A stretch of 19,532 bases of DNA from Pyrobaculum sp. (GTDB lineage Archaea > Thermoproteota > Thermoprotei > Thermoproteales > Thermoproteaceae), in NCBI GenBank assembly GCA_046293555.1, contig JBKBOT010000031.1, forward strand, positions 1 to 19,532, given 5' to 3'. This document shows, piece after piece, positions 385-19,532 of the stretch. The first letter of the stretch is position 1. Each line of letters begins with the position of its first letter. The notes beneath the pieces were generated by a model, which worked only from the letters and a program-made list of their open reading frames with translations, had not been told where the DNA came from and searched no databases. Made by a program: the position numbers and the translations under genes.

Positions 385-403
385 GTAAGAAGGTTAACTG
401 TTT

Positions 404-724
404 TTAAAAAAGCGTTGGGAGGAAGAGGCTGAATACCCCATTTATTATATATATCAAGACTGCTAGCGCCAAGGCGCCTAGCCACCCCACGCCTTGGAGT
501 TTCCTCAAGGCGTAGAGCCAGATGAAGAAGGCCAATATGCCGCTTATTACTGGTATGCGAAATATAGAGTAAAATAGCCAAAAGATCAACGCGCCTGCTA
601 ATGCGGTGAGAGCCGCCCCGGCGAGACTCTCCCGTTTTTGCCTCCCGGGGAAAATCTTTAACGCGAGCCATATGGCTATAGTGGTGACTATCCACCCCAC
701 TAGAATACCGACTATATTCGCCAT
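404..724 (-). CDS. Small integral membrane protein (about 4 TM), loosely YvlD/4-TMS holin-like
   Basis: 106 aa with four hydrophobic segments; ATG start with TATATAAA beginning 27 bp upstream. The family assignment is pattern-level only. Confidence 0.65.
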   Translation of the reverse strand: MANIVGILVGWIVTTIAIWLALKIFPGRQKRESLAGAALTALAGALIFWLFYSIFRIPVISGILAFFIWLYALRKLQGVGWLGALALAVLIYIINGVFSLFLPTLF

Positions 725-743
725 GGCGTTTTCCTAGGAGTAG

Positions 744-751
744 TTTATATA
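744..751. promoter_or_regulatory. Single bidirectional TATA box (TTTATATA / TATATAAA)
   Basis: Its first base is 27 bp from ATG 771 on + and 27 bp from ATG 724 on -. Flanked by the inverted repeat GGAGTAG (737-743) / CTACTCC (759-765). Confidence 0.6.
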
Positions 752-770
752 CTTTGGCCTACTCCAGCCT

Positions 771-983
771 ATGGATGTGCTCGACGTGCCGGGATGTCCC
801 GAGGGGTCGCTTAGAGTAGTGTCGTACATACAGGAAAGACAGCCTGCCGTCCTCGTGGTGAGAACTCCCGACGCCGATTGTGTAAAAGTACTACAGTTAG
901 TACTCCCCCTTTTTGACTACTCCGTGGTGGAGACCACAAGCGGAGACATCTATATGCTTAAAGTGAAGAGGCGAGACGTCTAG
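771..983 (+). CDS. TusA/SirA-like small protein (putative sulfur carrier)
   Basis: 70 aa. N-terminal LDVPGCPEG resembles the TusA LDxxGxxCPxP motif and C-terminal YMLKVKR resembles TusA YxxxIRK; size fits. Confidence 0.6.
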   Translation: MDVLDVPGCPEGSLRVVSYIQERQPAVLVVRTPDADCVKVLQLVLPLFDYSVVETTSGDIYMLKVKRRDV

Positions 984-2070: not shown

Positions 2071-2102
2071 ATATAGAAATGGGGAGTATAAAAAAGACGG
2101 GG

Positions 2103-3200: not shown

Positions 3201-3201
3201 A

Positions 3202-4785: not shown

Positions 4786-4879
4786 GCCAAAATCGATATT
4801 TACCCAGAAATATTTTTTGGAACAACCCGCCTGGCTTTACAACTATATATGTTCTAACAGTGGGGGGATATGTATATTG

Positions 4880-5296
4880 TTATTCCTGTGTCTTAGGCCA
4901 CCTCGCGCTTTCGCCTAGCTCTTTTAGAACTGGGTCTTCTAGAAAGTCTCGAACTGAGAGCACCCCCACGGCCTTTCCCGTGTTGTCCACCAGGATGACA
5001 TGTCTAACTCCTCTCTTCCTCATGGCGACTAAGACTTGGTAAACCCCATCTTCGGGTTTTGCGGTAAGTAAGTCTTTTGATGTGCCTACCTCAAGGGCTT
5101 TGGCTGTATTTGGGACACCTCTAGCCATCGCCCTGACTAGATCTTTTTCCGTCACTATCCCCAGGGGCCTTCCCTCCGTGTCTACTATAACCACGGCGCC
5201 TATGTTGTGAGCCGCCATTACTGCCGCAACTTCCCCCACCGTGGCGTCTACATGTAACGTCACGGGGGGTCTCTTGGCCAGATCTCCAACCTTCAT
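4880..5296 (-). CDS. Stand-alone CBS-domain pair protein
   Basis: IGAVVIVD..GIVTEKD and VRHVILVD..GVLSVRD CBS motifs. Start placed at ATG 5296 (138 aa) because it then aligns without gaps to the paralog at 5734-6150; ATG 5314 is the alternative. Confidence 0.9.
   Translation of the reverse strand: MKVGDLAKRPPVTLHVDATVGEVAAVMAAHNIGAVVIVDTEGRPLGIVTEKDLVRAMARGVPNTAKALEVGTSKDLLTAKPEDGVYQVLVAMRKRGVRHVILVDNTGKAVGVLSVRDFLEDPVLKELGESARWPKTQE
5156..5219. repeat. 64-bp direct repeat, copy 1 (copy 2 at 6010-6073)
   Basis: 63/64 identical; the only mismatch is 5171 T vs 6025 C. Confidence 0.95.
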
Positions 5297-5347
5297 AATT
5301 CCGATGGTTTGCATATTTTTATTTATGACTTCATAATTTACTAAATG

Positions 5348-5737
5348 TTATCTACAGATTTGCCGAAGGGCTTGTGGGTTTATTATATCTCTGATTGAAA
5401 CAACGCCGACCATCTTGCCGCCTTCTGTAACAACCAGGTGTCTGATGTTATTTATCCACATGAGTTCAGCCGCCTTCTCCACCGGCTCTTCTGCGCCTAT
5501 GGTAACCAACGTGGTGGACATAAAGGCCTCTACGGGGGTGGAGAGAGGCATCCTCATGCTTATAGCCCTCACGATGTCTCTTTCAGACAACACCGCCATC
5601 GGCATGTTGGGATTTTCTGGATTTACCACAACTAACGCGCCTACAGAGTGTTTAGCCAACAGGTCTGCCGCCTCGAGAAGCGTGACGTTAGGCGTGATGG
5701 TCAGCGGCGGCTTTCTTATAAGCTCTCTTATCTTCAT
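5348..5737 (-). CDS. Stand-alone CBS-domain pair protein
   Basis: VGALVVV..VLSERD and IRHLVV..GVVSIRD; ATGA overlap (5734-5737) with the upstream CBS gene. Confidence 0.9.
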   Translation of the reverse strand: MKIRELIRKPPLTITPNVTLLEAADLLAKHSVGALVVVNPENPNMPMAVLSERDIVRAISMRMPLSTPVEAFMSTTLVTIGAEEPVEKAAELMWINNIRHLVVTEGGKMVGVVSIRDIINPQALRQICR

Positions 5738-6150
5738 TCCTCCGGCTTAGGCCACCAGACCCTGTCGCCCAGGCTTTTCAACGCCCTGTCTTCCAGCAGG
5801 TCTCTTATCGACAAGACGCCAGCTACCTTGCCCAAATCGTCTACCACAATTAGGTGCCGCACCTTTCTCTCCCTCATTTTCTCCATCGCCTCATATATGT
5901 CGTCATCCATTTTAGCCACGACGAGATCTCTGGCGGTGCCCACCTCTAGCGCCTTGGCCGTCAGCGGGGTCTTCTTGGCGATGGCGCGGAGCACATCTCT
6001 TTCCGTAATTATCCCCAGGGGCCTCCCCTCCGTGTCTACTATAACCACGGCGCCTATGTTGTGAGCCGCCATTTGCGCCACGGCTTCTTCCACTGTGGCC
6101 TCTGCGTGTAGCGCCACAGGCGGCTTTTTGAGAAAATCTCTCACCCTCAT
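5734..6150 (-). CDS. Stand-alone CBS-domain pair protein
   Basis: GIITERD and VRHLIVVD..GVLSIRD; ATGA overlap (6147-6150) with the ppcA stop. Confidence 0.92.
   Translation of the reverse strand: MRVRDFLKKPPVALHAEATVEEAVAQMAAHNIGAVVIVDTEGRPLGIITERDVLRAIAKKTPLTAKALEVGTARDLVVAKMDDDIYEAMEKMRERKVRHLIVVDDLGKVAGVLSIRDLLEDRALKSLGDRVWWPKPEE
6010..6073. repeat. 64-bp direct repeat, copy 2 (copy 1 at 5156-5219)
   Basis: Encodes MAAHNIGAVVIVDTEGRPLGI in both CBS paralogs; 48 bp are perfectly identical (6026-6073 = 5172-5219). Confidence 0.95.
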
Positions 6151-7523
6151 CCCAAAAACTTGCGGAATTTCCCCATGGCGATTATGTTCGAGTCGCTTCT
6201 AGGCATTCTCAATAGCGTCAGATATGTGGGATTTGGCTTGGCGTCTATGCCGAGGTGATCCGCCATTTCTAACACGGCCTTTACGATCTCGCCGCCTAGA
6301 AACTTCTCTGCGGTCACCGGGTCGAAAAACTCCATGTCGTACTCCAATTCTTTTATATATGTGGGGAGGATCTTAAGGACTTTATCCAGCCTGCCCGATC
6401 TCGCCAGCTCTATGACATATGGCGCGTCTAAAAGCGTGGGGGGGACCCCCACGGCGTACCAAGTTGCAGTGTAGACAATTGCCCTCGGCATGTTCACCAC
6501 GGCGTCGCCATGGGAGAAAAGACGGCCGTACTCCTTCCAGCTGACCCTATCTCTGGTGCCAGGCACCAACCTGGCGACTTCTGTCACTCTATCCACATAT
6601 CTAAACACCAGGGAGCGGTATTTTGCAGAAGCCTCGGTGATTATAGCCACGACGTCTTCAGGGGGGCTGTGTCTAGCTTGACAACAGGCGTTTAAGATGG
6701 CCTCCCTAACTTTTATGTACTCTTCTAGCGATACGTCGTATCTCACGGCGGATTGTATCGTCGCCGTGTGGTAACCCGCGTATTGGACTACCTCAAGGTG
6801 GCAAAGCCTCGGGTTGTTCAACCCCCCGCGAAATGGCGGCGACCCCATGCCGATTATAGGCCTGATCTTTAGCCCCGCCTCTGCCTCCAGCCTGGAGGCA
6901 GAGGAGAGGGCGTAGGCTATAGAGAGGGCTGAGGCGAGGTGGCCGTGTTTCACAGCGGAGTCAGACTTGCCGAAAAACACCCTCACCTCCCCGTCGCCGT
7001 CTTTAAACACCTGTGTAAGTATTTCTTTCGCCTTTAGTTGCACCACGGCGTCTTCTATCAGGGGTATCACCTCCACATCTCCAATATCTACCCCAGTTTC
7101 CGACTTGTAGATCTCGTACTTCCTTTTTAACATCCTCCTCACTAACATCACCGTGTCTATATCTTCCACCATGGGCAGGATGACCCACCTGACGGCTTGC
7201 CTCCCGGCGTATTTCACAGAGAAGTAGTTAGCCACTATGGCCGCCTCTAGAGACAACATGGCGCGGTCAAACTCCTCGAGCTTGGGGTTGGGGAGACGTA
7301 CGGTTATATACCGCCGCTCTCCAAGAGGCACCTCGGACCTGAAGGCTTTCATCACGATGTCTTTCGGCTGTCCGTAGGGAGTCATCTTCCCCTCAAAGTC
7401 TACCATCACCTCGTCACATCCGTGAGCCGTGAAGGCCACTAACGCCTCGTCTACCTCTTCCCCAGCCGTAATCTTCACCGTGGCGTCTGGATGTTGTGTA
7501 CACATGAGCTTAGGTATATGCAT
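6147..7523 (-). CDS. ppcA: Archaeal-type phosphoenolpyruvate carboxylase
   Basis: IPKLMCTQHPD N-terminus, DEVMVDFEGK, VIPLIED, RVFFGKSDSA, GMGSPPFRGGL, TIQSAVRYD, PRAI; 458 aa. Confidence 0.95.
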   Translation of the reverse strand: MHIPKLMCTQHPDATVKITAGEEVDEALVAFTAHGCDEVMVDFEGKMTPYGQPKDIVMKAFRSEVPLGERRYITVRLPNPKLEEFDRAMLSLEAAIVANYFSVKYAGRQAVRWVILPMVEDIDTVMLVRRMLKRKYEIYKSETGVDIGDVEVIPLIEDAVVQLKAKEILTQVFKDGDGEVRVFFGKSDSAVKHGHLASALSIAYALSSASRLEAEAGLKIRPIIGMGSPPFRGGLNNPRLCHLEVVQYAGYHTATIQSAVRYDVSLEEYIKVREAILNACCQARHSPPEDVVAIITEASAKYRSLVFRYVDRVTEVARLVPGTRDRVSWKEYGRLFSHGDAVVNMPRAIVYTATWYAVGVPPTLLDAPYVIELARSGRLDKVLKILPTYIKELEYDMEFFDPVTAEKFLGGEIVKAVLEMADHLGIDAKPNPTYLTLLRMPRSDSNIIAMGKFRKFLG

Positions 7524-7544
7524 TACCTAACTACATAACCCCCC

Positions 7545-7551
7545 TAATAAA
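7545..7551 (-). promoter_or_regulatory. TATA box for ppcA
   Basis: Purine-rich BRE-like AGAAAAAAG followed by TTTATTA, beginning 28 bp before ATG 7523. Confidence 0.65.
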
Positions 7552-7575
7552 CTTTTTTCTCTATTTTAGATAACG

Positions 7576-7600
7576 ATAATTAGAAAGCTTTATAATTATT
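7576..7600. promoter_or_regulatory. 24-bp near-perfect palindrome, candidate transcription-factor site
   Basis: ATAATTAGAAAGCTTTATAATTAT (7576-7599, one mismatched pair), centred between the divergent TATA boxes; contains TTTATAATTAT, shared with 12089 and 14091. Confidence 0.65.
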
Positions 7601-7625
7601 AAAAAATCAATGGAAAAACATAAAC

Positions 7626-7631
7626 TTTAAG
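7626..7631 (+). promoter_or_regulatory. TATA box for the Zn-ADH gene
   Basis: TTTAAG after an A-rich stretch, beginning 28 bp before ATG 7654. Confidence 0.6.
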
Positions 7632-7653
7632 AGGGGGGCCATGTGGGATGTCA

Positions 7654-8739
7654 ATGCGTGCAGCTGTATTACATGGGTACAACACCCCCCTGAAGATAGA
7701 GGAGGTAGATATCCAAAAGCCAAAAGGCGGCGAGGTGTTGCTACGTATAAAAACTGCCGGCGTCTGCCATAGCGACTTGTACGTACTAGAGGGCGCGACG
7801 CCGGTGCCGCCCCCCCTGGTGCCAGGACACGAGGCCGTAGCCGTGGTGGAAGAAGTGGGCCCCAACGTGGAGGGAGTTGCGCCAGGAGATGTGGTGGTAT
7901 CTTCCTTCGTGTGGCCATGTGGGAAGTGTAGAAACTGCGCCAGGGGGTTAGAAAACCTCTGCGAGAAGTTCGCCGAGGTTAGACCCAAGGGGGTGCTTTT
8001 AGACGGCACCACGAGGCTAAGCCTAAACGGCGCCCCCGTGAGGGTATTTCTAGGCGGGGTTTGGGCCGAATATGCCGTAGTGCCCGCCACGGCGGTGGCC
8101 AAACTCCCCAAGAGCCTTGCAAACAGGCCGGAGATGGCCATGTTGGGATGTGCCATCCTGACGGCATACGGCGCCGTGGTGAACTCCGCCTCAACCTCGC
8201 CGGGAGACACCGTGGTGGTAATAGGCACAGGCGGCGTGGGTCTCGCCGCGGTGCAGGTAGCCAGGGCGCTGGGGGCCAGGGTGGTGGCAGTGGGGAGAAA
8301 TCCGGAGAAGTTAAAACTGGCGCGGGAGCTGGGGGCAGAGGTGGTTAACACCAGAGAGGGCGACCCGGTGACAGCTGTGAGAAACCTCACGGGGGGTCGC
8401 GGCGGCGATGTGGTAATTGAGGCTGTAGGCAGCGAGGAGACTGTAGACATGGCTGTAGAGATGGCGGCGACGGGCGGCAGGGTGGTGTTAGTGGGCTTGA
8501 TGGCCGTGGGGAGGAGGGCCCCCGTCCACGTGGCGCGGGTGGTGAGAGGCGGGATATCTCTAGTGGGTAGCTACGGCGCGAGGCCGAGGGTAGATCTGCC
8601 TAAAGTCATCTCGATGGTAGAACGAGGCCTCTTGAGGCCAGAGCTTCTGGCCAGAGATATATACAAGCTAGAGGAGGTAAACCAGGCCGTAGAGGCGCTT
8701 AGAGGCGGGAGGTCTGTTAGGCCCCTCCTAACCCCTTAG
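7654..8739 (+). CDS. Zn-dependent alcohol dehydrogenase (MDR family), likely NADPH succinic semialdehyde reductase
   Basis: CHSD, GHE, structural-Zn CGKCRNC..C, LGCA, GTGGVG. VAVGR has no acidic residue after beta-2, which suggests NADPH. The specific function is from gene context. ATG 7648 is an alternative start. Confidence 0.85.
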   Translation: MRAAVLHGYNTPLKIEEVDIQKPKGGEVLLRIKTAGVCHSDLYVLEGATPVPPPLVPGHEAVAVVEEVGPNVEGVAPGDVVVSSFVWPCGKCRNCARGLENLCEKFAEVRPKGVLLDGTTRLSLNGAPVRVFLGGVWAEYAVVPATAVAKLPKSLANRPEMAMLGCAILTAYGAVVNSASTSPGDTVVVIGTGGVGLAAVQVARALGARVVAVGRNPEKLKLARELGAEVVNTREGDPVTAVRNLTGGRGGDVVIEAVGSEETVDMAVEMAATGGRVVLVGLMAVGRRAPVHVARVVRGGISLVGSYGARPRVDLPKVISMVERGLLRPELLARDIYKLEEVNQAVEALRGGRSVRPLLTP

Positions 8740-10614
8740 CTTTTTCTCTAGCTCCTCAATACTCTCCTGGTCCTCCAAGGTGCTTAAATCCCCCACCGGC
8801 TGCCCCATGGCCATAGCCCGTAAAACCCGCCTCATGACTTTCCCAGTTCTGGTCTTGGGGAGTTTCTCCAAGATGGCTACTCTCCCCACCACGGCGAGGG
8901 GGCCGAGGGACTTTCTTAAATGTGCCACCACCTCCTCTTCTGTCACCAGCCTCCCCGCTTTGGGCACCACGAAGACCGCCAGCACGTCCCCCCTCACTGG
9001 ATCTGGTATGCTTACCACTGCCGCCTCCGCCACCGCGGGGTGGGAGGACAAGATGTCCTCCACCTCTCTCGTGGAGAGCCTGTGTCCAGCCACTTTAATC
9101 ACGTCGTCTGACCTCCCCAATATGTGTAGATGGCCCTTCTCGTCGATATAGCCCAAATCTCCGGTTAGATAATAGCCGCGGAATTTAGTCCAGTAGCTAT
9201 CTACATACCGCTTGGGGTCTTTCCATACCGTGTGTAAAAAGGCCGGCGGCAGCGGGGGCTTTACTGCCACATGTCCCTTAGAGCCAGGAGGCAGCTCCCT
9301 CCCCTCGTCGTCTAGAATCACTAGCCGCAATGTGGGATATGGATGCCCCACAGAGCCGTAGCTATAGTCAAAACCGCCCAGGTTTAGAGATCCCGGCGCC
9401 GTGACGAAACAAGCCGTCTCTGTCTGGCCCCATACGTCTGCCACCTGACAGCGGTCTTTACAGATATATGTCTTAAGCCACTTGTAGGCCTCCTCGTTTA
9501 GCACCTCCCCGGTGGGGTACACCGCGATGAGGCTATCTAGCCTATATCTACGCGGCCACTCGTCGCCATATTTCATCAAAAGCCTTATCGCCGTGGGGGA
9601 GAAGAGGTGGTGAGTCGCCCTATATGCATCTACTACCTCCCACCAGATGCCCGGATGTGGATAGTCCGGCGCATCGTCGTACCAAAGCACAGTGAGGCCG
9701 TTTAAAAGCGGCCCGTGTACGCCGTAGTGATGGCCAGATATCCAGCCGATGTCGGCTGTGGAGAAGAAGACTATATCCTCTCTAAACTCCCGTTCTGCCC
9801 CCACCATGTGGTTAAAGGCGTACCACACCCAGACCATATATGCCCCATGTAGGTGGAGAATACCTTTAGGCTTCCCCGTGGTGCCAGAAGTGTATAGTAT
9901 AAATAAAGGCTCGTCGCCAGCTACCCACTCGGGCTCTATGTAGGCATTTAGGGGGACGTACTTCATCTCTTCTTGCCACCAGAAGTCCCTCCCCTCCCTC
10001 ATGGGTACCCCCACGCCGAGATTGCGATATACTAACACCTGGGCGTCCATCCCGGCGAGGGCAAGTGCCTCATCTACTGTGGGCTTCAGCGGGATGGCCT
10101 TCCCCCTTCTAGACATGGCGTCTGCGGTGATCACCATTTTGGCCTCTGCGTCTTTAATCCTATCTGCCAACGCCTGCGCGCCAAAGCCAGAAAACACGAC
10201 TGTGTGTACAGCCCCCAGCCTGCTGACAGCAAGCATGGCCACCATAGCCTCTGGGATCATGGGCATATATATCGCCACCCTGTCTCCCCTCTCTACACCC
10301 CGCATTTTTAACAAGGTGGCAAGGCGGTTTACCTCGCGGTAGAGATCCCAATACCGCAAAACCCTGGTGGCGCCAGAGGAGGAAACCCATATTAACGCCG
10401 CCTTGTTAGACCTACCGCTGTTGATGTGGCGATCTACCGCGTTGTAGGCTATGTTGGTCTCCCCCCCTACAAACCACTTGTAGAAAGGCGGGTTGGAGTC
10501 GTCATACGCCTTTTCCCACCTCTGCCTCCAGTAGAGTTTTGCAGCTTGTCTCTCCCAAAATCCTATCGGGTCCTCTAGAGATTCTTGGTAAACCTTTAGA
10601 AATGTGCCAGACAT
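8728..10614 (-). CDS. AMP-forming acyl-CoA synthetase, likely 4-hydroxybutyrate-CoA ligase
   Basis: YTSGTTGKPKG, WGQTET, TGD, GRSDDVIKVAGHR, PKTRTGKVMRR. The acetyl-CoA synthetase pocket Trp is replaced by Gly; sits among DC/HB genes. Confidence 0.88.
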   Translation of the reverse strand: MSGTFLKVYQESLEDPIGFWERQAAKLYWRQRWEKAYDDSNPPFYKWFVGGETNIAYNAVDRHINSGRSNKAALIWVSSSGATRVLRYWDLYREVNRLATLLKMRGVERGDRVAIYMPMIPEAMVAMLAVSRLGAVHTVVFSGFGAQALADRIKDAEAKMVITADAMSRRGKAIPLKPTVDEALALAGMDAQVLVYRNLGVGVPMREGRDFWWQEEMKYVPLNAYIEPEWVAGDEPLFILYTSGTTGKPKGILHLHGAYMVWVWYAFNHMVGAEREFREDIVFFSTADIGWISGHHYGVHGPLLNGLTVLWYDDAPDYPHPGIWWEVVDAYRATHHLFSPTAIRLLMKYGDEWPRRYRLDSLIAVYPTGEVLNEEAYKWLKTYICKDRCQVADVWGQTETACFVTAPGSLNLGGFDYSYGSVGHPYPTLRLVILDDEGRELPPGSKGHVAVKPPLPPAFLHTVWKDPKRYVDSYWTKFRGYYLTGDLGYIDEKGHLHILGRSDDVIKVAGHRLSTREVEDILSSHPAVAEAAVVSIPDPVRGDVLAVFVVPKAGRLVTEEEVVAHLRKSLGPLAVVGRVAILEKLPKTRTGKVMRRVLRAMAMGQPVGDLSTLEDQESIEELEKKLRG

Positions 10615-10615
10615 G

Positions 10616-12031
10616 TCAAAGGCTCAATATGTAGAACTTGGGCTCTGTGAAGTACAGCATTGTGGACCTAACCCCCTCCCTCCACCCAAAGCCCGAGTTC
10701 TTCACGCCGCCGTATGGCAACGCGTCAAATCTCACCCTGGTGGAGTCGTTAATAATGACAGAGCCGGCCTTAATGGCCCGCGCCACTCTCATCCCCTTTC
10801 TGTAATCCGCCGTGTAGACCGCCGCCTGGAGGCCATACTCAGTGGAGTTAGCTAGCTCCACAGCCTCTCTCTCGTCCCCAAAGGGGGCCACCGGGAGGAC
10901 GGGGCCAAAGACCTCTTCTTTAAACACTCTGGCGTCTATATGGCCGTCGTCAAATTTTATCAACGTGGGCTGGAAGAAAAAGCCCCGTCTCTCCAGCCTC
11001 CTCCCGCCGTGGAGCACCTCGCCGTTTTTCCCCACGGCGTCTGACACAAAGCCCTCCATGGCTTTTACCATCTTCTCGGAGATCAAAGGCCCCATGTCTG
11101 TAGTCTCCTCCGTGGGGTCACCTACCTTTATGTCTGTAGTTTTTTCTATTAGCAACTTTACAAACTGTTGGTAGGCAGGTTTCTCTACATATACCCTCTT
11201 TGTGGCGTTACAGTTCTGGCCGGCGTTTTCAAACCTAGCCCTGACGATTATTGAGGCCGCGTGTGTCAAGTCTGCATCCGCGAAGACAATTGCCGGGTCG
11301 GAGCCGCTGGGGGCGATCATGTATTTCTTCCCCCTGCCCGCCGCCTTGGCTGCCACCTGTAGCCCCACGGCCGTACTTCCGGTGAAAGAAATTCCCGCCA
11401 CCTTCGGGCTGTCTAGCAGCTCGTTGAAGACCTCCTCCCCGCTGCCAACTATCACTCTCACCACGCCGTCGGGGAGGCCGGCCTTTTGGAAAATCTCATA
11501 TAGCTTAAGGGCCGTGAGGGGCGTGTGGGTAGAGGGTTTCACCACTGCGGTATTTCCCGCAATAATTACAGGCGCCACCTTGTGGGCAAAGGTGGAGGCC
11601 GGGTTGTTATAACTAAGGGCGCCCGCCACAACCCCCACTGGCTCTCTTATCTCTACCACAAGCCTACCCTCGTTACCTGGCGGGTAGGTGTAGCCATCTA
11701 CCCGCGGCACTCTTCCCTCTAAGATGTGACGCGCCTCTTCAGCGCTCGCCCTTACGATCTCTATAGCTCTATATAGCTCCGCTCTGGCGTCTCTAATGGG
11801 CTTTCCAGATTCCGCCACTAGGGTTTTTAACAGCTCGTCAAAAAGGAGTTCTGTAAGCTCGGCAGCTCTCCTTAAGATCTTTCCCCTCTCCCTAAGGGGG
11901 GTGGCAGACCACTTCTCAAAGGCCGTGTATGTCTCATCTATAGCTTTCCTCACGTCTTCTCTAGTGGCTGAGGGGAGTACCGCCAAGACATCCCCCGTGG
12001 CTGGATTATAGACAACGACCTCTTTCGACAT
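10616..12031 (-). CDS. Aldehyde dehydrogenase superfamily, likely CoA-acylating succinyl-CoA reductase
   Basis: [21 protein letters not shown] (catalytic Cys), [15 protein letters not shown]. The LELGG motif is replaced by IAPSG. Its stop is 1 bp before the ligase ATG. Confidence 0.85.
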
Positions 12032-12050
12032 GGGCCCCCCTCACTGTTAT

Positions 12051-12058
12051 TATATAAA
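12051..12058 (-). promoter_or_regulatory. TATA box for the ALDH-ligase operon
   Basis: TTTATATA beginning 27 bp before ATG 12031. Confidence 0.7.
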
Positions 12059-12088
12059 GATTTTCAATATGTACATAAATGCTTGAAA

Positions 12089-12115
12089 TTTATAATTATA
12101 GAAAATCATAATTTA
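12089..12115. promoter_or_regulatory. AT-rich palindromic candidate transcription-factor site
   Basis: TTTATAATTATAG with the perfect palindrome TATAATTATA (12091-12100) midway between divergent TATA boxes; a second ATAATT lies 16 bp downstream (12108), the same spacing as 7576/7592. Confidence 0.6.
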
Positions 12116-12133
12116 AAAAATTGGGATAAAAAA

Positions 12134-12140
12134 TTTAAAA
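12134..12140 (+). promoter_or_regulatory. TATA box for abfD
   Basis: GGGATAAAAAA followed by TTTAAAA, beginning 27 bp before ATG 12161. Confidence 0.7.
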
Positions 12141-12160
12141 CATTCCAAAAGAAAAGTGCT

Positions 12161-13663
12161 ATGTTGAGAACTGGGGATCAGTACGTAGAGGGGATACGAA
12201 ATAGACAACATGTGGGCATATATGTCATGGGGAAGAGGGTTACAGACGTCGCCACAAATCTCTTCCTCAAGCCCTCCGTCCTCTCGTTTAAGGCCACTTT
12301 CGACGCGGCGTTTGATGAAGACACAAGAGATCTGGCTAGGGTATATAGCCCCATAGTGGGGGAAGAGGTAAATCGCTTCAACTCGCTACACGCAACCCCA
12401 CAAGACCTGGTGGCTAAGGTAAAGCTTTTGAGAAAACTAAGCCACAAGACTGGCACATGTTTTCAACGATGTGTGGGGTGGGACGGCCTCAACACTCTCT
12501 ACATAGTAACCCGCAAGGCGGCGGAGAGGGGGGGCGCCAAGACCTATTTCGAGAACTTCATGAGGTATCTAGAGTACGTACAAAAAGGGGACTTGGCGCT
12601 AGCTGGCGCCATGACGGACGTGAAGGGGGTAAGGACGTTAAAACCCAGCGAGCAGCCAAACCCAGACGCCTACGTGAGGGTAGTAGAGGAGCGAGATGAC
12701 GGCGTCGTGGTGCGGGGCGCCAAGGCCAACATAACTGGCGTCGCCGTGGTGGACGAGGTGTTGGTAATGCCCACGAGAGCCATGACGGAAAAAGACGCCC
12801 CCTACGCCATATCTTTCGCAATCCCTCTAGACACTCCGGGAGTTAAGGTGGTGGTGGGGAGGCAGCTAAATGACTCCAGAAGGCTTGAGGGCGGGGAGAT
12901 AGACGGGCTGCCCTACATGTTTAACCACGAGGGGCTTCTCATATTTGAAGACGTCTTTGTGCCCTGGGAGAGGGTATTCCTATATAGGGACTGGAGGTGG
13001 GCTGGCGTCTTGGTGGAGATCTTCTCTTCTTACCACAGACAGGGCTACGCCGGCTGTAAGTCCGGCCTTGGCGACGTGATTATAGGCACGGCTTACAACC
13101 TGGCGAAACAGATCGGGGTGGCGGGAAAGTCTCACATAGAGGAGAAGCTAGTAGAGATGACTTTCCTCAACGAGGCCATGTATTCCACAGGCCTTGCGGC
13201 GAGCTGGGAGGGGAGAAAGATCGCGGAGGGTCCCGGCGGCGTTTGGGTCAACCCCATGTATGCCAACATAACTAAACACCTGGTAACACGCCTCCCCTAC
13301 GAGGTCGCCAGGTTGTCTCACGACATTGCCGGCGGAATTGTGGGCACAGCCCCCAGCGAGTTCGACCTGAAGAACCCAGAGGTTAGGCAGCTAATAGAGA
13401 AGTACCTCCAGGGCGTGCCGGAGTTTACGGCTGAGGATAGACTCAAGATGGTCCGCATGTTGGAAAACGTCAGCATGAGCGTGGCCTATCTCGTGGAGTC
13501 TATCCACGGGGCTGGCAGCCCCCAGGCCCAGAGGATTTCCATACAGAGGATTTACGACTACGAATATGCAGAGGTGGTAGCCAGACGGCTAGCCAACATG
13601 TCTAGAAGAGAGCTAGATAGAAGAGTGGAGCCACATAAGCCCACAGAGGCGGAGAGGATATGA
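12161..13663 (+). CDS. abfD: 4-hydroxybutyryl-CoA dehydratase (FAD, 4Fe-4S)
   Basis: CFQRCVG (CX3C) and HRQGYAGC (HX6C) cluster ligands, [20 protein letters not shown]. Start moved to ATG 12161 (MLRTGDQY, 500 aa) from the TTG at 12083. Confidence 0.95.
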
Positions 13664-14082
13664 CGCCAGTACGTCACATCGCCTCAAGGCCGCCGATAAC
13701 CGCCAGCCCCCATATCTCCATAAGAGAGGCCGCGGGGATTATGGCCCAGAGGAGAATTGGCCTCTTGATACTTGTAGAGGGGGGGAAGCTATATGGCGTG
13801 GTGTCAGAAAGAGATATCGTAGAGGCCGTGGCGCAGGGGGTCCCGCCCGGCGAGGAGGTATCTAAAATCGCCAAGAGGGAAGTTGTCACTATTGACGCAG
13901 ATGTTAACATCAGGGAGGCGGCTACACTTATTAGACGCCACGGGATTAGACACCTCGTGGTGATGTCGCGAGGGGAGATATACGGCGTGATTTCTGTAAG
14001 AGATCTAGTGAGAGAGAAGGAGATTCTTGCCTCCATCGCCGAGTTCCCACGCCTAGAGACAGAACTGGCGGCAGCTGACTGA
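13660..14082 (+). CDS. Stand-alone CBS-domain pair protein
   Basis: IGLLILV..GVVSERD and IRHLVV..GVISVRD; ATGA overlap with the abfD stop. Confidence 0.9.
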
Positions 14083-14089
14083 CATCAAA

Positions 14090-14139
14090 AATAATTATAA
14101 AATTGATACATTTTCGTTAAAAACATTTAAACTTAAAAA
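14090..14139 (+). promoter_or_regulatory. Candidate operator plus TATA box for the frd operon
   Basis: 14090-14101 is the exact reverse complement of 7589-7600 (TTTATAATTATT). CTTAAAAA at 14132 begins 27 bp before GTG 14159; TTTAAA at 14126 is an alternative. Confidence 0.55.
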
Positions 14140-14158
14140 TTAGTTGATATAATTAGAT

Positions 14159-15889
14159 GTGGAAATTATAAAATGTAATGTAGCTATAGTGGGGTCCGGC
14201 ATGGCTGGACTCAGGGCGGCGGCGGCAGCCGCCTCTGTGGGCGAAAAAGTTGAGATATGTGTTGTTAGTAAAGTCGCCGGGCCGCGGTCACATAGCATCT
14301 CGGCAGAGGGCGGCATGGCGGCTGTGATATATCCAGAGAAGACGGGAGACTCCCCACACCTCCACGCCTATGATACCGTCAAAGGCGGAGACTTCCTTGT
14401 AGACCAGAAGGCAGCACTCCTCCTCGCCGAGGAGGCGCCAGGAGAGGTTTGGTTTCTAGAAAAAATTGGGGTGCCCTGGAGCCGGGCGGAGGACGGCTCT
14501 ATCGCCCTGAGGCTTTTTGGCGGCATGTCTAAACCACGTACAGTCTTTGCTAAAGACAAGACTGGATTCTACATAATGACAACGCTATATAGATATGTCA
14601 AGTCTTTTCCAAACATAAAGTTTTTTGAAGAACACATAGTAACAAAAGTCGTCATAAGGCATGGGGTCTTCCACGGAGTTACCGCTCTAGACATGAGGAG
14701 GGGAGAGATGCGGTTCTTCAAGGCGCAGGCCGGAATTCTAGCCGCGGGGGGAGGGGGGAGGATATTCAAGCTGACCACCATGGGGCATCTAAACACCGGA
14801 GAGGTGCTTGGCTTCGCCCTTAGGGAGGGCGTGGCGTTAAAAGATGTGGAGTTTGTACAGTGGCACCCCACGGCTCTTGTGCCTAGCGGAATTTTGATAA
14901 GCGAGGCTGCAAGAAGCGAGGGGGGCTATCTGGTGAACAGACTGGGGGAACGCTTCATGAAGAGATACGCCCCACAAAAAATGGAACTAGCGCCAAGAGA
15001 CATAATCTCCCGGGCTATCGTACAGGAGTGTAAAGCTGGCCGCGGCTTTTATAGAGGTGGCCTCTGCCACGTGGGTCTCGACGTCAGGCATCTAGACAGG
15101 TCTATGGTACAACAGCGGCTGCCCCTCCTGGTGGATCTCGTCAAGACTTATGCAGGCGTTGACCCCTTCAGCGAGCTCATCCCCGTGGCTCCCGCGGTGC
15201 ATTACTTTATGGGCGGCGTTCATACTGACGTGTGGGGGCGCGTGTTGACTGCAGATGGGGTGTGGGTTAGGGGGCTGTGGGCAGCCGGCGAGGCGGCTGC
15301 GGTGAGCGTACATGGGGCAAACCGCCTGGGCTCAAACTCGTTAAGCGAGTGTGCAGTCTGGGGGAGAATAACGGGAGAACAGGCGGCAAAATACGCGCTT
15401 GAGGCGGGGGGCAGCGGCGAAAATCTGGCCTCCATCTTGGAGGAGGAAGAAAACAGGGTGTTTTACAGACTGGGGCGAAAGGAGACTGGCGGGGAGTCGC
15501 CAGCCGCCGTAAAGGCAGAGCTACAAAACGTAATGCACCAAAGCGCCGGCGTCTTTAGAGACGAGAGGTCAATGGCCGAGGGGCTCGCCAAGTTGGCGAA
15601 ACTCATGTCTATAAACCACCTCAACCTACATGACGTCAGCAGGGTGTACAACATGGAGTTAAGAGAGCTGATAGAGCTCGACGGGATGTTGCCCGTAGCT
15701 TACACCATATTGCTCGGGGCCTACTTTAGGAAGGAGTCTAGAGGCGCTCACTACGTGGTGGAGTATCCACATAGAGACGACAAGAGGTGGTTAAAACATA
15801 GCGTTGCCTTCAAGCTTGGCAATAGTTACGGCATGTTGTGGACAGAAGTGGATGTAGACAGATGGCCGCCCGAGGTGAGGGTGTACTGA
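14159..15889 (+). CDS. frdA: Fumarate reductase/succinate dehydrogenase flavoprotein subunit
   Basis: GSGMAG, RSHSISAEGG (covalent FAD His), QWHPT, SEAARSEGG, ELAPRD, HYFMGG, HGANRLGSNSL, RKESRGAH. The reductive direction is inferred from context. Confidence 0.92.
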   Translation: MEIIKCNVAIVGSGMAGLRAAAAAASVGEKVEICVVSKVAGPRSHSISAEGGMAAVIYPEKTGDSPHLHAYDTVKGGDFLVDQKAALLLAEEAPGEVWFLEKIGVPWSRAEDGSIALRLFGGMSKPRTVFAKDKTGFYIMTTLYRYVKSFPNIKFFEEHIVTKVVIRHGVFHGVTALDMRRGEMRFFKAQAGILAAGGGGRIFKLTTMGHLNTGEVLGFALREGVALKDVEFVQWHPTALVPSGILISEAARSEGGYLVNRLGERFMKRYAPQKMELAPRDIISRAIVQECKAGRGFYRGGLCHVGLDVRHLDRSMVQQRLPLLVDLVKTYAGVDPFSELIPVAPAVHYFMGGVHTDVWGRVLTADGVWVRGLWAAGEAAAVSVHGANRLGSNSLSECAVWGRITGEQAAKYALEAGGSGENLASILEEEENRVFYRLGRKETGGESPAAVKAELQNVMHQSAGVFRDERSMAEGLAKLAKLMSINHLNLHDVSRVYNMELRELIELDGMLPVAYTILLGAYFRKESRGAHYVVEYPHRDDKRWLKHSVAFKLGNSYGMLWTEVDVDRWPPEVRVY

Positions 15890-16197
15890 TGAGATACGTG
15901 GTGTACATTAGGAGGAAGTCTGGAGAGGTGCAATACACACAGAGGTACGTAGTGGAGGCAGACCCAAGGACCTCTGTGTTAGACCTACTTATAAACCTGA
16001 GAGAGGATGTAGACGGCACCATAGCCTTTAGGTACGCATGTAGGATGGGGGTATGTGGCATCTGCGCCGTGAGGATAAACGGCGTGCCGAAACTGGCGTG
16101 TGCCACCAAACTCTCTGACTTAAACACCCACGAGATCTACATAGAGCCTATTTCAGACAGGGTGATTAAAGACCTGGTGGTAGACTTAGAGCGATGA
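15889..16197 (+). CDS. Short FrdB/SdhB-like protein, N-terminal 2Fe-2S domain only
   Basis: ATG 15889 overlaps the frdA stop (TGATG); 102 aa; FRYACRMGVCGICAVRING..LAC; ends at VIKDLVVDLER*. Confidence 0.88.
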   Translation: MRYVVYIRRKSGEVQYTQRYVVEADPRTSVLDLLINLREDVDGTIAFRYACRMGVCGICAVRINGVPKLACATKLSDLNTHEIYIEPISDRVIKDLVVDLER

Positions 16198-17495
16198 GGG
16201 TGGTGGTGGTGGGCGGCGGGGCTGCTGGCGCCACGGCGGCCTCTAGAGCCAGACGGGTAAACCCACGTAATGAGGTAGTTCTGATAGAAGAGGGGCCATA
16301 TGTCACCCACGCGCCTTGCGCCATACCATACCACATAAGTCACTCCGCAAGGCTATATCTCTACACTGCAGAACAGTTCGCCAGAGAGAGGCAGGTAAGA
16401 GTCTATACAAACACGAGGGCTGAGGTGGCTGAGGGAAATAAGCTAAAGCTCAGAGGTCAACACGGCGGGGTGGTGGAGTGGGATGTGCTCATAGTGGCCA
16501 CTGGCGCCAGGGCTGTGACGCCTAGGATCGAGGGCGTGGAGAAAAGGGGCGTGTATGTCATCCGCCACGTGGCTGAGGTACATGCCCTAAAAAGCGGGCT
16601 GGAGAGAGCGCGGGAGGTGGCCATCGTGGGGGGCGGCTACGTGGGGGTAGAGATGGCGGAGGCCCTGTTGAGAATAGGGAAGAAGGTGGCCATGATAGAG
16701 TCGGGCCGCTGGCTGTTAGGCAGGATGCTCGACGGCGACATGGCCGCCGCGGTGAATCAATACGTGAGAGCCATGGGGGCAGAGCTAATACTGGGGGAGG
16801 CCGTGAGGAGGATTTTGGGGGGCGAGGAGGTAACTGGCGTCGAGACTCAAAACGCCGTGGTGAAAGCAGACGCGGTGGTGTTATCCACAGGCGTTAGGCC
16901 AAACGTAGAGCTTGCGGTAGCCCTCGGGGCTAGGCTAGGCGAGACGGGGGCGGTCCACACCGACGAGTATCTCGAGACCGCCGTCCCCGGGGTATATGCG
17001 GCAGGCGACGTGGCTGAGGTGAGACACGCCGTTACCAACAGGCCCGCATGGCTCCCCCTGGCCCCCTATGCCAACAAGATGGGCTACGTGGCGGGCACCA
17101 ACGCGGGGTTTGGGGAAAAAAGGCTGATGTTCCCGCCTGTCGCCGGCGCCTCGGTCACCAAGTTCTTCGAGATGTATGTAGGGAAGGTTGGCCTCAACGA
17201 GAGGGAGGCCGGAGAGGCCGGCCTTAAGACAGAAAGCGCCGTGGTGACCACTAGGGACAAAGCCCACTTCATGCCAGACGCCAGGGAGGTACACCTAAAG
17301 GCTGTGGCCTCCGGCGGGGCTCTAATCGGCGTGCAGGCCGTGGGCTTCAGCCCCTATGTAGCCGCCGTGATAGACTTCGCCGCGCAACATATCGGCAGGC
17401 CCCTCTCCTCCATAATACTGGCGGAGTATTCCTACATGCCCTTCACAGGCCCCGTCTGGCACCCCCTAATCACCGCGGCGAGGATCTTGGATTAA
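16194..17495 (+). CDS. FAD-dependent pyridine nucleotide-disulfide oxidoreductase, CoA-disulfide reductase/NADH oxidase family
   Basis: GGGAAG, single redox Cys in HAPCAIPY, ATG motif, GGGYVGVE, YAAGD, PLAPYANKMG, C-terminal SYMPFTGPVWHPL; ATGA overlap with the 2Fe-2S gene. Confidence 0.88.
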   Translation: MRVVVVGGGAAGATAASRARRVNPRNEVVLIEEGPYVTHAPCAIPYHISHSARLYLYTAEQFARERQVRVYTNTRAEVAEGNKLKLRGQHGGVVEWDVLIVATGARAVTPRIEGVEKRGVYVIRHVAEVHALKSGLERAREVAIVGGGYVGVEMAEALLRIGKKVAMIESGRWLLGRMLDGDMAAAVNQYVRAMGAELILGEAVRRILGGEEVTGVETQNAVVKADAVVLSTGVRPNVELAVALGARLGETGAVHTDEYLETAVPGVYAAGDVAEVRHAVTNRPAWLPLAPYANKMGYVAGTNAGFGEKRLMFPPVAGASVTKFFEMYVGKVGLNEREAGEAGLKTESAVVTTRDKAHFMPDAREVHLKAVASGGALIGVQAVGFSPYVAAVIDFAAQHIGRPLSSIILAEYSYMPFTGPVWHPLITAARILD

Positions 17496-17524
17496 CAAAT
17501 ATATGTAAATATCGACATATATAC

Positions 17525-17857
17525 ATGGAGTACAGACTCGACGTGCTGACGGCGTTGGGGCTCGAGGGGGAGCCTCTCACTGAGGACAGATTTAGGGAGT
17601 TCCAAAAGGTAAAGCTAGTGGAGGAGGAACTTGTGGCGGGGCAATATATCGACTTCGGCACGGTAAAGATCAGACACGAGGGCGGGGGCACCATCTCCTT
17701 TGCGAAGACTTGGCACGTATTTCTAGAGGCCATCTCGCTGAAAGACGGCGAGAGTTTTCTCATATATTGTACATGCCCCATGGTAGATAGGTTTGTGGTC
17801 TTGAAGAGAGTGGGCGAAAAAATCCTTCTCCTCTATAGGCCCCGCCCCCAGTCTTAA
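17525..17857 (+). CDS. Hypothetical protein
   Basis: 110 aa ATG-start ORF that fills the gap, with an AT-rich upstream region and a stop sharing TTAA with the convergent gene; contains CTCP. Confidence 0.65.
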   Translation: MEYRLDVLTALGLEGEPLTEDRFREFQKVKLVEEELVAGQYIDFGTVKIRHEGGGTISFAKTWHVFLEAISLKDGESFLIYCTCPMVDRFVVLKRVGEKILLLYRPRPQS

Positions 17858-19425
17858 TTACCCCTTTTTCTCGGCTCTGTAAGCCACCCCACCAAGTTTT
17901 TAAAAAACTGCCAGTTGTCGCCCATAGTTATGAAATACGGCGTGAAAGATCTTACAGACCCCACAAAGGTGAAGTTGCCGGCTTGTGCCGCCACCGTGTA
18001 GACGCCGTGGCCATATCCAAACATGTAGCCCGCCGCCTCTAGCCTATATGGCGCGTTGGTAGAAACCGCAGAGGGGGAGAAGAAGACTAGTCTAGACACG
18101 TTTCTCAAAAGCCTCCAGCTCCCGTTGGGCGTAATGGTGACAAGCTGCCAGTTTTCTTCAAAGGCCTTGGCGCCACCTGTGTAATTATAGACAGCACGAA
18201 GTCCAGACATGTTGAAATACATAAGCAAGGGGTCGAAAGGCGCGTAGGCGGAATACGGCGCTATGTAGCCCACCCCGCCTATGTAGACAACAGCGCTTGC
18301 CCTCATGTCGTAAAAATAGACAACCCGCACCCCCCTCCTGGTGGCGTTTACCACGGCCTCCACCGCCGTTTTGGAGAAAGGCGTCGTGGGGTTAACTACG
18401 ACGAGGCCTGTGGCGTTTTGTAACGCCCTGGCGAGGCCGTATTCTGTCTCCACGGGGGTTAAGACGTGGCCTCTAGCCGCCAGCTCCGCTCTAAGCACTT
18501 CTATAAAGCTATTGGGCACCATGTTTCCATGGGCCATGTCAAACACCACGTAGGGCTTCCCCGCCGTGTCCACTGGGGGCAGCTGGGGACGCGGCGTGTT
18601 TGACTCTAGCGTCCACTGCACCGCCGTGGGGAGTATGTAGAAGATAGGCGGCGACGGCTGGTTTAACAACCTCCCTAGATCTACCCCACCTGTAGTGGAG
18701 TTTAGATATACCACCTCGTATTGCCTAAGCCCTAGTCTCATGGCCATATCTCTCACGGCGTCGAAGAGGCCCCCTATCTCGTCCACAAGCCCCAGCTGGA
18801 GGGCCTCGCCTGCAGTAAACACGGCGGCTGTCTCTAAAGCCGCCAGGTCTTTTATCTTCTCCCCCCTCCCCTTGAGGACTGCCGCCACGAAGTTTAGCCT
18901 TATTTTCTCCACGTCGTTATAGTAATCTGTCAACTCCTTTCCGTAATACTTAAGCGGGCCTGTTGTGTATATATAATCGGGGACGTCGTAGAAATATGTC
19001 TCTGGCCACAACACCGCAATAACGCCGATGCTGCCCACCCAGCTGGAGGGCGTTGCGTAGATCTTGTCTGTAGCCACGGAGATGTAGTAAGCTCCGGAGG
19101 CCGCCATGCCTGTAACAACGGCGTATTTAGTCTTGTTTATTCCCAACAACGCCGTATATAACGCCTCTGTGTCCGCAACTGTGCCCCCGGGGGAGTTTAC
19201 CAACAGTATGAGGCCGGCCACCTCTTCCCTCTGGGCTATTTCAGTCAGTTTTCTCACAAGTTCCCCCGCGTAGGGGCTTGCGATAACGAAATCCACTGGA
19301 GCCACCACGATTTTTGGCGCCGGCGGGGCTGGCTTTATGTACCATGTGGATAACGTCATGAAGAGCGCCACGAGACTTATGGCTAGCGCCGCCGCCACGC
19401 CTGCCTTAACCCACACGCTGGCCAT
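17854..19425 (-). CDS. S49 (SppA-like) serine peptidase with N-terminal membrane anchor and extra C-terminal domain
   Basis: NSPGG, AASGAYY, GSIGV, GPLK (Ser-Lys dyad), GLVDEIG. Start placed at ATG 19425 because ATATAAAA begins 26 bp upstream; 19443 is an alternative. Confidence 0.82.
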   Translation of the reverse strand: MASVWVKAGVAAALAISLVALFMTLSTWYIKPAPPAPKIVVAPVDFVIASPYAGELVRKLTEIAQREEVAGLILLVNSPGGTVADTEALYTALLGINKTKYAVVTGMAASGAYYISVATDKIYATPSSWVGSIGVIAVLWPETYFYDVPDYIYTTGPLKYYGKELTDYYNDVEKIRLNFVAAVLKGRGEKIKDLAALETAAVFTAGEALQLGLVDEIGGLFDAVRDMAMRLGLRQYEVVYLNSTTGGVDLGRLLNQPSPPIFYILPTAVQWTLESNTPRPQLPPVDTAGKPYVVFDMAHGNMVPNSFIEVLRAELAARGHVLTPVETEYGLARALQNATGLVVVNPTTPFSKTAVEAVVNATRRGVRVVYFYDMRASAVVYIGGVGYIAPYSAYAPFDPLLMYFNMSGLRAVYNYTGGAKAFEENWQLVTITPNGSWRLLRNVSRLVFFSPSAVSTNAPYRLEAAGYMFGYGHGVYTVAAQAGNFTFVGSVRSFTPYFITMGDNWQFFKNLVGWLTEPRKRGN

Positions 19426-19502
19426 AGGTATGATGTCTCCCATTTTTATATCTCTCCACAAGTAGAATCTTTTTCTTTCTAGAAGTATTAACAATGTTAA
19501 TA

Positions 19503-19532
19503 CTTAAAAATACACAACGTAAATACCCCATG
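19503..19532 (+). promoter_or_regulatory. TATA-like box and probable start of a gene leaving the window
   Basis: CTTAAAAA at 19503 begins 27 bp before the ATG at 19530-19532. Confidence 0.5.

Follow-up and report, generated by a model that had tools for sequence, protein, structure and literature searches.

A candidate soluble fumarate reductase of Pyrobaculum encoded by overlapping genes for FrdA, a 2Fe-2S-only FrdB and a CoADR-type flavoprotein

Analysis of a 19,532-nucleotide stretch of Pyrobaculum sp. DNA (assembly GCA_046293555.1, contig JBKBOT010000031.1, positions 1 to 19,532 of the forward strand; this whole stretch is called the window below) revealed three consecutive genes on the + strand that encode a fumarate reductase flavoprotein (FrdA), an FrdB homolog reduced to its 2Fe-2S domain (mini-FrdB), and a flavoprotein of the family of CoA-disulfide reductases (CoADR), NADH oxidases (Nox) and persulfide reductases. 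The source is a hot-spring archaeon, and the trio lies inside a dicarboxylate/4-hydroxybutyrate (DC/HB) gene cluster. The frdA gene (14159-15889, +) starts with GTG and encodes 576 amino acids; its stop codon TGA (15887-15889) has one base in common with the ATG (15889-15891) of mini-frdB (15889-16197, +; 102 amino acids), the junction reading GTGTAC-TGATG-AGA. At the second junction, GAGCG-ATGA-GG, four bases are shared between the end of mini-frdB (stop TGA at 16195-16197) and the start of the flavoprotein gene (16194-17495, +; ATG at 16194-16196; 433 amino acids). The coordinates bear out the TGATG and ATGA overlaps by which an earlier reading of the same sequence, hereafter the original prediction, had chained the three genes, and they support the trio as one tightly coupled unit without an internal gap. 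A scan for terminator-like sites, which is of the bacterial type and only suggestive here, gave none on the + strand between 14159 and 17495. The 76-nt AT-rich gap upstream of frdA contains a promoter-like box, TTTAAA...TATAAT (14126-14153, +; 6-33 nt 5' of the frdA start), which is the top + strand match of a consensus scan; the consensus is of the bacterial type, and the match therefore denotes AT-rich box content only. The position of the box would fit an archaeal TATA box and a leaderless or near-leaderless transcript.

The product of frdA is a full-length member of the succinate dehydrogenase/fumarate reductase (Sdh/Frd) flavoproteins. It contains the FAD_binding_2 (PF00890, 1e-99) and Succ_DH_flav_C (PF02910, 1e-31) domains, matches E. 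coli FrdA (1kf6_A, 1.7e-124), and passes the cut-offs of the Sdh/Frd flavoprotein subfamily models NF004724 (880 bits vs 826) and TIGR01812 (668 vs 567), while it remains under those of NadB (370 vs 453 bits) and of TfrA (NF004900, 422 vs 718 bits). His45, in the motif RSHSISAEGG, occupies what we take to be the position of the covalent-FAD histidine, by comparison with E. coli FrdA and SdhA. In phylogenetic analysis, the protein falls within a clade of 16 cluster-type FrdA sequences (SH-aLRT 100), apart from canonical SdhA. The choice of Glu or Gln after the FAD histidine was considered as a marker of reaction direction; it is uninformative here, since SAEGG stands in FrdA as well as in the genome's canonical SdhA. 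Two blocks of frdA (codons ~215-285 and 335-410; window positions 14800-15390) are 93-100% identical at the nucleotide level, third codon positions included, to the canonical sdhA of the same genome (G000:C3; L085:3823-5565, -), whereas outside these blocks third-position identity is 14-63%. In the complete genome G054, third-position identity over these two blocks is 77-87%; the signal is weaker in G036 and absent from G038. This pattern points to either recent gene conversion between the paralogues or an assembly chimera in the metagenome-assembled genome.

Mini-FrdB matches 2Fe-2S families only. Its best match, to Fer2_3 (1.3e-28), spans residues 10-101 of the protein and positions 11-103 of the 107 in the profile, with weaker matches to Fer2 and Fer2_4, and a family scan of the 102 residues gave no match to any Fer4 family. 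Models of full-length SdhB/FrdB are covered only over their first 100-115 positions and score below their cut-offs (e.g. NF004616, 100 vs 228), and in alignments with solved SdhB/FrdB chains the protein runs along residues ~20-118 and then stops. Its C-terminus reads ...VIKDLVVDLER*; no 4Fe-4S/3Fe-4S motif follows, because the next codons belong to the flavoprotein gene. Cysteines C51, C56, C59 and C71 are invariant in 19 of 19 aligned mini-FrdB orthologs, all of which terminate 0-5 residues past IKDL(V/I)x(D/E), and a diverged ortholog outside this alignment, in genome G051, stops at the same point. The end of FrdB at its 2Fe-2S domain, without the domain of the other two clusters, had been proposed in the original prediction and is thus found again in the 20 orthologs read to their stop codons. 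To judge from these alignments, the short FrdB is a conserved form rather than a pseudogene, a chance occurrence or a product of decay.

A separately encoded C-terminal domain, which the original prediction had named as evidence that would speak against it, was looked for, and no dedicated split C-terminal FrdB gene was found in the genome of the window. The sole candidate was a 100-aa di-cluster protein of the Fer4_8 family, rejected on the ground that it does not track mini-FrdB: 50 of the order's 62 genomes have a homolog, and family f3, which lacks mini-FrdB, is among the carriers. The Fer4_8 gene (G000:C5:54358-54657; L035:1456-1758, +) lies directly behind a 159-aa open reading frame (ORF) that by eye appears to encode a DNA-binding regulator. 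The predicted lack of an FrdC/D anchor likewise held: no anchor gene adjoins the trio, which is preceded by CBS-pair and dehydratase genes and followed by a 110-aa ORF.

To describe the distribution of the short form, we surveyed the 62 genomes of the order, where mini-FrdB was found at 22 loci: 21 loci (L005-L025) with 55-73% identity, and the diverged G051 locus. All short-frame FrdB matches in these genomes belong to one family, f1. A second, canonical-type SdhB (~245 aa where the frame is whole) is present in all mini-FrdB genomes except G039 and the 76%-complete G052. In a sample of 401 genomes of the phylum, every short-frame match among the 150 of 250 matches listed again falls in f1; one of these, in G049, is 173 aa long and lies at the end of a contig, and the same genome has a true mini-FrdB as well. 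A profile search of 1.84 billion representative sequences gave 5125 matches at E <= 1e-3, and the best 150 of them contain three credible stand-alone clusters, P0010, P0015 (the G051 type) and P0017, the other short sequences being fragment-like. The P0017 protein (98 aa, from an NCBI contig of 37.7 kb) is a very divergent stand-alone mini-FrdB ending in ...VIRDLITED; searches of 120 genomes from the class and of the genome and metagenome contig collections did not recover it. In other lineages of the phylum (e.g. G101, G209, G320, G417, G359, G159 and G373), an FrdB-like 2Fe-2S domain starts frames of 520-545 aa, and a length of 525-545 aa would fit TfrB-like fused subunits.

Comparison of the 21 loci by tblastn demonstrated that 15 of them encode FrdA, mini-FrdB and the flavoprotein with order and strand conserved. 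Among these 15 trios, 13 are intact, one (G040) is frameshifted in both FrdA and the flavoprotein, and one (G053) is fragmented and contains N. The sixteenth case is the G051 locus (L061, G051:C11, 4656-8057), which encodes an FrdA of 574 aa, a mini-FrdB of 102 aa ending in VIKDLIISL and a flavoprotein of 441 aa, with 58%, 48% and 38% identity to their counterparts in the window, respectively. This trio lies outside the DC/HB context, being flanked by tRNA synthetase, CBS and peptidase genes, and the 99%-complete G051 genome has no match to 4-hydroxybutyryl-CoA dehydratase. Its FrdA and mini-FrdB branch with canonical SdhA and SdhB, as they would after an independent origin of the trio, but a single clade with the cluster FrdAs was not rejected by the AU test (p = 0.175). 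Synteny, which the original prediction had proposed as a check, thus stands for 16 of the 22 loci, where the flavoprotein follows FrdA and mini-FrdB, but not for the other six, where it is missing beside them. The module is so far restricted to Thermoproteaceae.

The operon flavoprotein contains Pyr_redox_2 (2e-56), Pyr_redox (5e-20) and Pyr_redox_dim (30.2 bits vs a cut-off of 25.3) domains, which correspond to Rossmann folds for FAD and for NAD(P)H, the latter with the motif G146-x-G148-x-x-G151, and to a dimerization domain. Its best NCBIfam family is CoADR (TIGR03385), with a score of 322 bits under the cut-off of 579; NF007123 scores 250 vs 458. A single conserved cysteine, Cys42 in THAPCAIPY, conforms to the (S/T)HxPCxxPY motif of the CoADR/Nox/Npx group, and Glu169 stands at the end of the second Rossmann beta-2 strand (VAMIES). 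All 13 of the 13 operon-linked flavoproteins compared have Cys42, the GxGxxG by which NAD(P)H is bound, and Glu or Asp as the acidic residue that closes beta-2; the equivalent of Cys42 is also kept in G051 (SHSPCSAPY). The assignment of the third gene to the single-cysteine CoADR/Nox family was therefore correct, and the glutamate noted in the same place is indeed there; its proposed consequence, the use of NADH, has to be put more weakly, as the acidic residue is compatible with NADH without proving it. An AlphaFold model of the flavoprotein (pLDDT 83.5) is, by Foldseek comparison, most similar to CoA persulfide/polysulfide reductases (TM 0.87-0.89; P. horikoshii; 4fx9/5l1n 0.87-0.88), and less so to AorC (8c0z_E) and to putidaredoxin reductase, including its complex with a 2Fe-2S ferredoxin (TM 0.73-0.76).

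One subclade of the operon-linked flavoproteins (loci L016, L018, L019, L021, L024, L025, L062 and L081) has an additional CxxC motif, R(L/M)CPxCRVV, with its cysteines aligned to residues 23 and 26 of the window's flavoprotein. Both cysteines are present in 7 of 7 counted members, and the motif is also found in the frameshifted G058 copy (L081), which is outside the count; it is absent from the subclade of the window (0/7) and from the housekeeping paralog described below (0/17). A C-terminal tail of 5-12 residues was observed in 6 of the 7 members, the seventh, L062, being outside this check. The CxxC motif could form a second redox or metal site.

In a maximum-likelihood tree of 41 flavoprotein homologs, the operon-linked proteins group together (UFboot/SH-aLRT 98/96), and the long-branched G051 copy is sister to this clade (97/94). 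A separate clade, largely mirroring the taxonomy, is formed by a housekeeping CoADR-like paralog that is present in 27 of 29 genomes of the family, G000, the genome of the window, being counted among them. The housekeeping copy in the latter (contig C18) is 53% identical to the operon copy and is closer to the P. horikoshii CoADR (3kd9; 424 bits, vs 312 bits for the operon copy). The two clades are cleanly divided by 14 positions, such as Ala43 in the operon clade vs Gly, and no insert distinguishes them. These data support a dedicated, faster-evolving paralog clade that travels with FrdA and mini-FrdB. In genomes G054 and G055 of genus g2, the flavoprotein and FrdA nest among the sequences of genus g1, and the mini-FrdB tree agrees weakly with this placement, while their housekeeping paralog groups with g2; moreover, the G054 trio lies ~500 kb from the dehydratase gene. 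Thus, the three genes are inherited together, as a unit of their own that does not depend on the other cluster genes.

Further genes of the window define the DC/HB-type setting, which the original prediction had assumed and which the location of the trio confirms. Upstream of the trio, they encode an archaeal phosphoenolpyruvate (PEP) carboxylase (6147-7523, -), a Zn-dependent alcohol dehydrogenase (Zn-ADH; 7648-8739, +), an AMP-forming CoA ligase (8728-10614, -), an aldehyde dehydrogenase (10616-12031, -), a 4-hydroxybutyryl-CoA dehydratase-type protein (12083-13663, +; HpaB_N and HpaB domains) and, directly upstream of the trio, a CBS-pair protein (13660-14082, +). The names succinic semialdehyde reductase for the Zn-ADH, 4-hydroxybutyrate-CoA ligase for the ligase and succinyl-CoA reductase for the aldehyde dehydrogenase are given by analogy with Table 1 of PMC12794621. 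Directly 3' of the trio is the 110-aa ORF (17525-17857, +), which has no Pfam match; a homolog of it stands directly after mini-FrdB in genome G050 and marks a clean presence/absence difference of the flavoprotein. Beyond the PEP carboxylase gene lie three more CBS-pair genes (4880-6150, -) and then, within 958-4785 (-), two ORFs of 527 aa and 365 aa similar to cytochrome bd oxidase subunit I and a 370-aa poly-ferredoxin with several 4Fe-4S dicluster domains, all neighbors of the CO2-fixation cluster.

The genome also encodes a complete canonical complex II, on contig C3, with an SdhA of 580 aa and an SdhB of 249 aa that has both C-terminal cluster motifs. Beside them are hydrophobic ORFs of 140 and 119 aa, which are the only SdhC/SdhD-like genes found in the genome, this likeness being read as hydrophobicity. 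Therefore, the anchorless unit is an addition to the respiratory enzyme and not a degraded copy of it.

The association of the three genes is already in print; the mechanism is not. Table 1 of PMC12794621 (December 2025) prints the trio together for the P. neutrophilum cluster, credits it to Ramos-Vera et al. 2009, and labels its members as putative fumarate reductase SdrA/FdrA, SdrB/FdrB and putative nucleotide-disulfide oxidoreductase; according to the same table, the oxidoreductase is clustered in five Pyrobaculum species. Of the natural electron partner of this enzyme, the legend of its Fig. 1 says that it "is not known", and its Introduction mentions ferredoxin as the hypothesized donor of fumarate reductase in other DC/HB organisms. 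The report on the T. tenax genome (PMC3189178) describes a second pair of flavoprotein and FeS subunits without anchors and leaves its role undecided. Full-text literature searches, with the primary J Bacteriol papers outside their scope, found no characterization of such an enzyme. The claim that the complex had not been characterized thus stands as far as these searches reach, but the grouping of the genes itself is not new, as the three are printed together in the table cited above.

We propose, with a probability of about 0.5, that the trio encodes a soluble anchorless enzyme in which electrons pass from NAD(P)H through FAD and 2Fe-2S to the FAD of FrdA and to fumarate. In this enzyme, the dedicated flavoprotein would replace both the 4Fe-4S/3Fe-4S half of FrdB and the quinol-binding anchor, probably sitting on the face opened by the missing C-terminal domain of FrdB. 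NAD(P)H would reduce the FAD of the CoADR-like subunit, from which electrons would go singly to the lone, now exposed 2Fe-2S cluster of mini-FrdB; the FAD of FrdA would then take them up and reduce fumarate to succinate, serving the DC/HB cycle in most carriers. The direction is proposed because, by textbook potentials, electron transfer from NADH (~-320 mV) to fumarate/succinate (~+30 mV) is strongly downhill and the reverse is not feasible. The proposal is supported by the operon structure, the conserved truncation, synteny, the dedicated paralog clade and the co-inheritance of the genes; the binding of the three proteins to one another, the identity of the donor, the way the electrons run and the part played by Cys42 are inferred. 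AorC and putidaredoxin reductase provide a precedent, as they show that proteins of this fold family act as NAD-linked electron-input subunits of Fe-S enzymes and pass electrons to or from Fe-S partners, 2Fe-2S ferredoxins among them.

Several observations weigh against an obligatory role of the flavoprotein. It is not adjacent at 6 of the 22 mini-FrdB loci (G050, G057, G058, G059, G052 and G034). In G050, an FrdA 80% identical to that of the window and its mini-FrdB are followed, 84 nt on, by the homolog of the 110-aa ORF. In the second genus (G057, G058 and G059), an intact FrdA and mini-FrdB are kept in the cluster, while the dedicated flavoprotein has been lost or frameshifted. The two genes kept face each other there, and the mini-FrdB of G058 comes right after the Zn-ADH gene, in the same orientation; the G058 member of the flavoprotein clade is broken into two frames and lies ~190 kb away beside trehalose-synthesis genes. 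The G052 flavoprotein of the clade is 16 kb off on the same contig, and in G034 mini-FrdB adjoins CBS and dehydratase genes without FrdA. Only the housekeeping paralog, ~50% identical, is present in G050, G057, G059 and G034. FrdA and mini-FrdB have evidently been kept without the dedicated flavoprotein, and these natural losses show that it is not universally required. The flavoprotein itself keeps all catalytic features of a free-standing NAD(P)H-dependent CoA-(per)sulfide reductase; neither a loss of CoADR-type chemistry nor a gained docking element is apparent in its sequence. Ferredoxin reductases of this superfamily are not known to need that cysteine. Furthermore, according to Table 1 of PMC12794621, the oxidoreductase is not clustered in T. 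uzoniensis or in T. tenax, the latter listed there as autotrophic, and the legend quoted above suggests, at least indirectly, that a simple NAD(P)H-dependent activity has not been evident in extracts.

The same losses bear on a tentative alternative, which we consider somewhat unlikely: FrdA and mini-FrdB would form a two-subunit soluble reductase whose exposed 2Fe-2S cluster receives its electrons from a diffusible donor such as ferredoxin or a different small Fe-S protein, and the flavoprotein would be a separate enzyme, that is, a second NAD(P)H-dependent CoA-persulfide/polysulfide (S0) reductase co-transcribed for regulation only, possibly keeping the CoA pool reduced as a CoA-intensive cycle runs in sulfur-rich conditions. 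This would account for the intact FrdA and mini-FrdB without a dedicated flavoprotein in G050, G057, G058 and G059, and it agrees with the CoADR-type catalytic features of the flavoprotein, the closest solved relatives of which are CoA persulfide/polysulfide reductases, as well as with the ferredoxin hypothesis in the Introduction of PMC12794621. Small di-cluster ferredoxin-like genes that might supply the donor are present in the genome, but the 100-aa Fer4_8 protein does not track mini-FrdB. The flavoprotein also stays by FrdA and mini-FrdB, and not by the CoA-dependent enzymes, even where the trio is ~500 kb from the dehydratase gene (G054) or the genome has no dehydratase match (G051). In addition, a housekeeping paralog nearer to the characterized CoADR already exists in the same genomes, and in G040, the sole genome with a frameshifted FrdA, the flavoprotein is frameshifted too.

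The invariance of Cys42 (13 of 13, and the G051 copy), unexpected for a pure NADH:ferredoxin reductase, leads to another possibility, which we regard as clearly improbable: a thiol- or sulfide-driven fumarate reductase, in which Cys42 would oxidize CoA-SH, persulfide or H2S and pass the electrons via FAD and 2Fe-2S to FrdA, NAD(P)H entering only indirectly through the housekeeping CoADR or through sulfur reduction. Electron transfer from a thiol or sulfide to fumarate is thermodynamically downhill, related flavoproteins act on CoA disulfide, persulfide and polysulfide according to the titles of their structure entries, and the second, canonical CoADR-like paralog would be available to recycle the disulfide. 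However, the NAD(P)H Rossmann motif and the acidic beta-2 residue are as invariant as the cysteine (13/13), which argues that the nucleotide site is still used, and no rhodanese or other sulfur-handling domain is fused or adjacent to the flavoprotein. If correct, this scheme would yield a convergent, differently built counterpart of the methanogen thiol:fumarate reductase, and a sulfur compound would be the physiological reductant of a CO2-fixation step; H2S is abundant in sulfur-respiring Thermoproteaceae. An oxidative or other role is highly improbable: the unit could be a soluble succinate oxidase (succinate to 2Fe-2S to a Nox-like FAD/Cys to O2), or its FrdA might have a different substrate, as L-aspartate oxidase does, for example. 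Such roles are suggested by the H2O-forming NADH oxidases and peroxidases in the flavoprotein family and by the FrdA histidine, at the position used for covalent FAD in succinate-oxidizing enzymes. Nevertheless, fumarate reduction is a step required by the CO2-fixation cluster that contains the unit, FrdA exceeds the cut-off of the Sdh/Frd subfamily only (880 vs 826) and is far under that of NadB (370 vs 453), and a complete membrane-bound complex II for succinate oxidation is encoded elsewhere.

The trio is a real, conserved and unusual module, a new variant among the soluble fumarate reductases. Its three small soluble proteins provide a concrete candidate for the electron partner of fumarate reductase in the DC/HB cycle, which the Fig. 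1 legend of PMC12794621 labels as not known. If the NAD(P)H-dependent mechanism is true, it would fix the redox and energy balance of the DC/HB cycle in Thermoproteaceae and represent a minimal complex II, with a flavoprotein in place of the membrane anchor and of two Fe-S clusters; this would bear on the modularity of Sdh/Frd enzymes and on the design of fumarate reductases that are soluble and NAD(P)H-linked. Lineages that have naturally lost the flavoprotein offer a built-in comparison.

Comparison of the trio with known systems revealed both shared and distinct features. The membrane-bound complex II of the E. coli FrdABCD type (1kf6) has in common with it the full-length FrdA and a 2Fe-2S domain with four cysteines, whereas the 4Fe-4S/3Fe-4S domain of FrdB is missing here and no anchor gene is present in the operon; therefore, no electrons can be taken from quinol by the known route. 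The methanogen TfrAB resembles the enzyme proposed here in being a soluble, anchorless fumarate reductase of an anaerobic archaeon, in which a non-quinol donor module replaces the anchor. The TfrB subunit has ~490 aa with further Fe-S and HdrD-like domains, in contrast to the 102 aa of mini-FrdB, which scores 79 bits against the TfrB model NF004898 (cut-off 385) and covers positions 5-99 of its 488; the donor module is of the Hdr type in TfrAB, and the candidate donor module here is a CoADR-type flavoprotein. The NADH-dependent fumarate reductase of Hydrogenobacter thermophilus is reportedly a five-subunit enzyme with other accessory subunits, while the trio operon contains no further redox genes. 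The H. thermophilus enzyme resembles the one proposed here in being soluble, NADH-linked and serving an autotrophic cycle (Miura et al. 2008, as cited in PMC13147460). AorC of the tungsten aldehyde oxidoreductase (8c0z_E), putidaredoxin reductase in complex with putidaredoxin (3lb8) and PadH (NF045765) belong to the same superfamily as the operon flavoprotein and have the same overall fold, although their likeness to it is much lower than that of the CoADR group (96 bits and TM 0.74 for AorC; TM 0.76 for 3lb8). None of these three is known to rely on the active-site cysteine of Nox and CoADR. The closest counterparts of the flavoprotein are the CoADR, persulfide and polysulfide reductases and NADH oxidases (P. 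horikoshii 3kd9/4fx9, A. fulgidus 6pfz, T. kodakarensis-type 6ruz), which have the same fold (TM 0.87-0.89), the same single active-site cysteine motif, and the same FAD, NAD(P)H and dimerization domains; unlike them, the operon flavoprotein has Ala for Gly after the cysteine and 13 other clade-specific changes, and is encoded behind FrdA and mini-FrdB.

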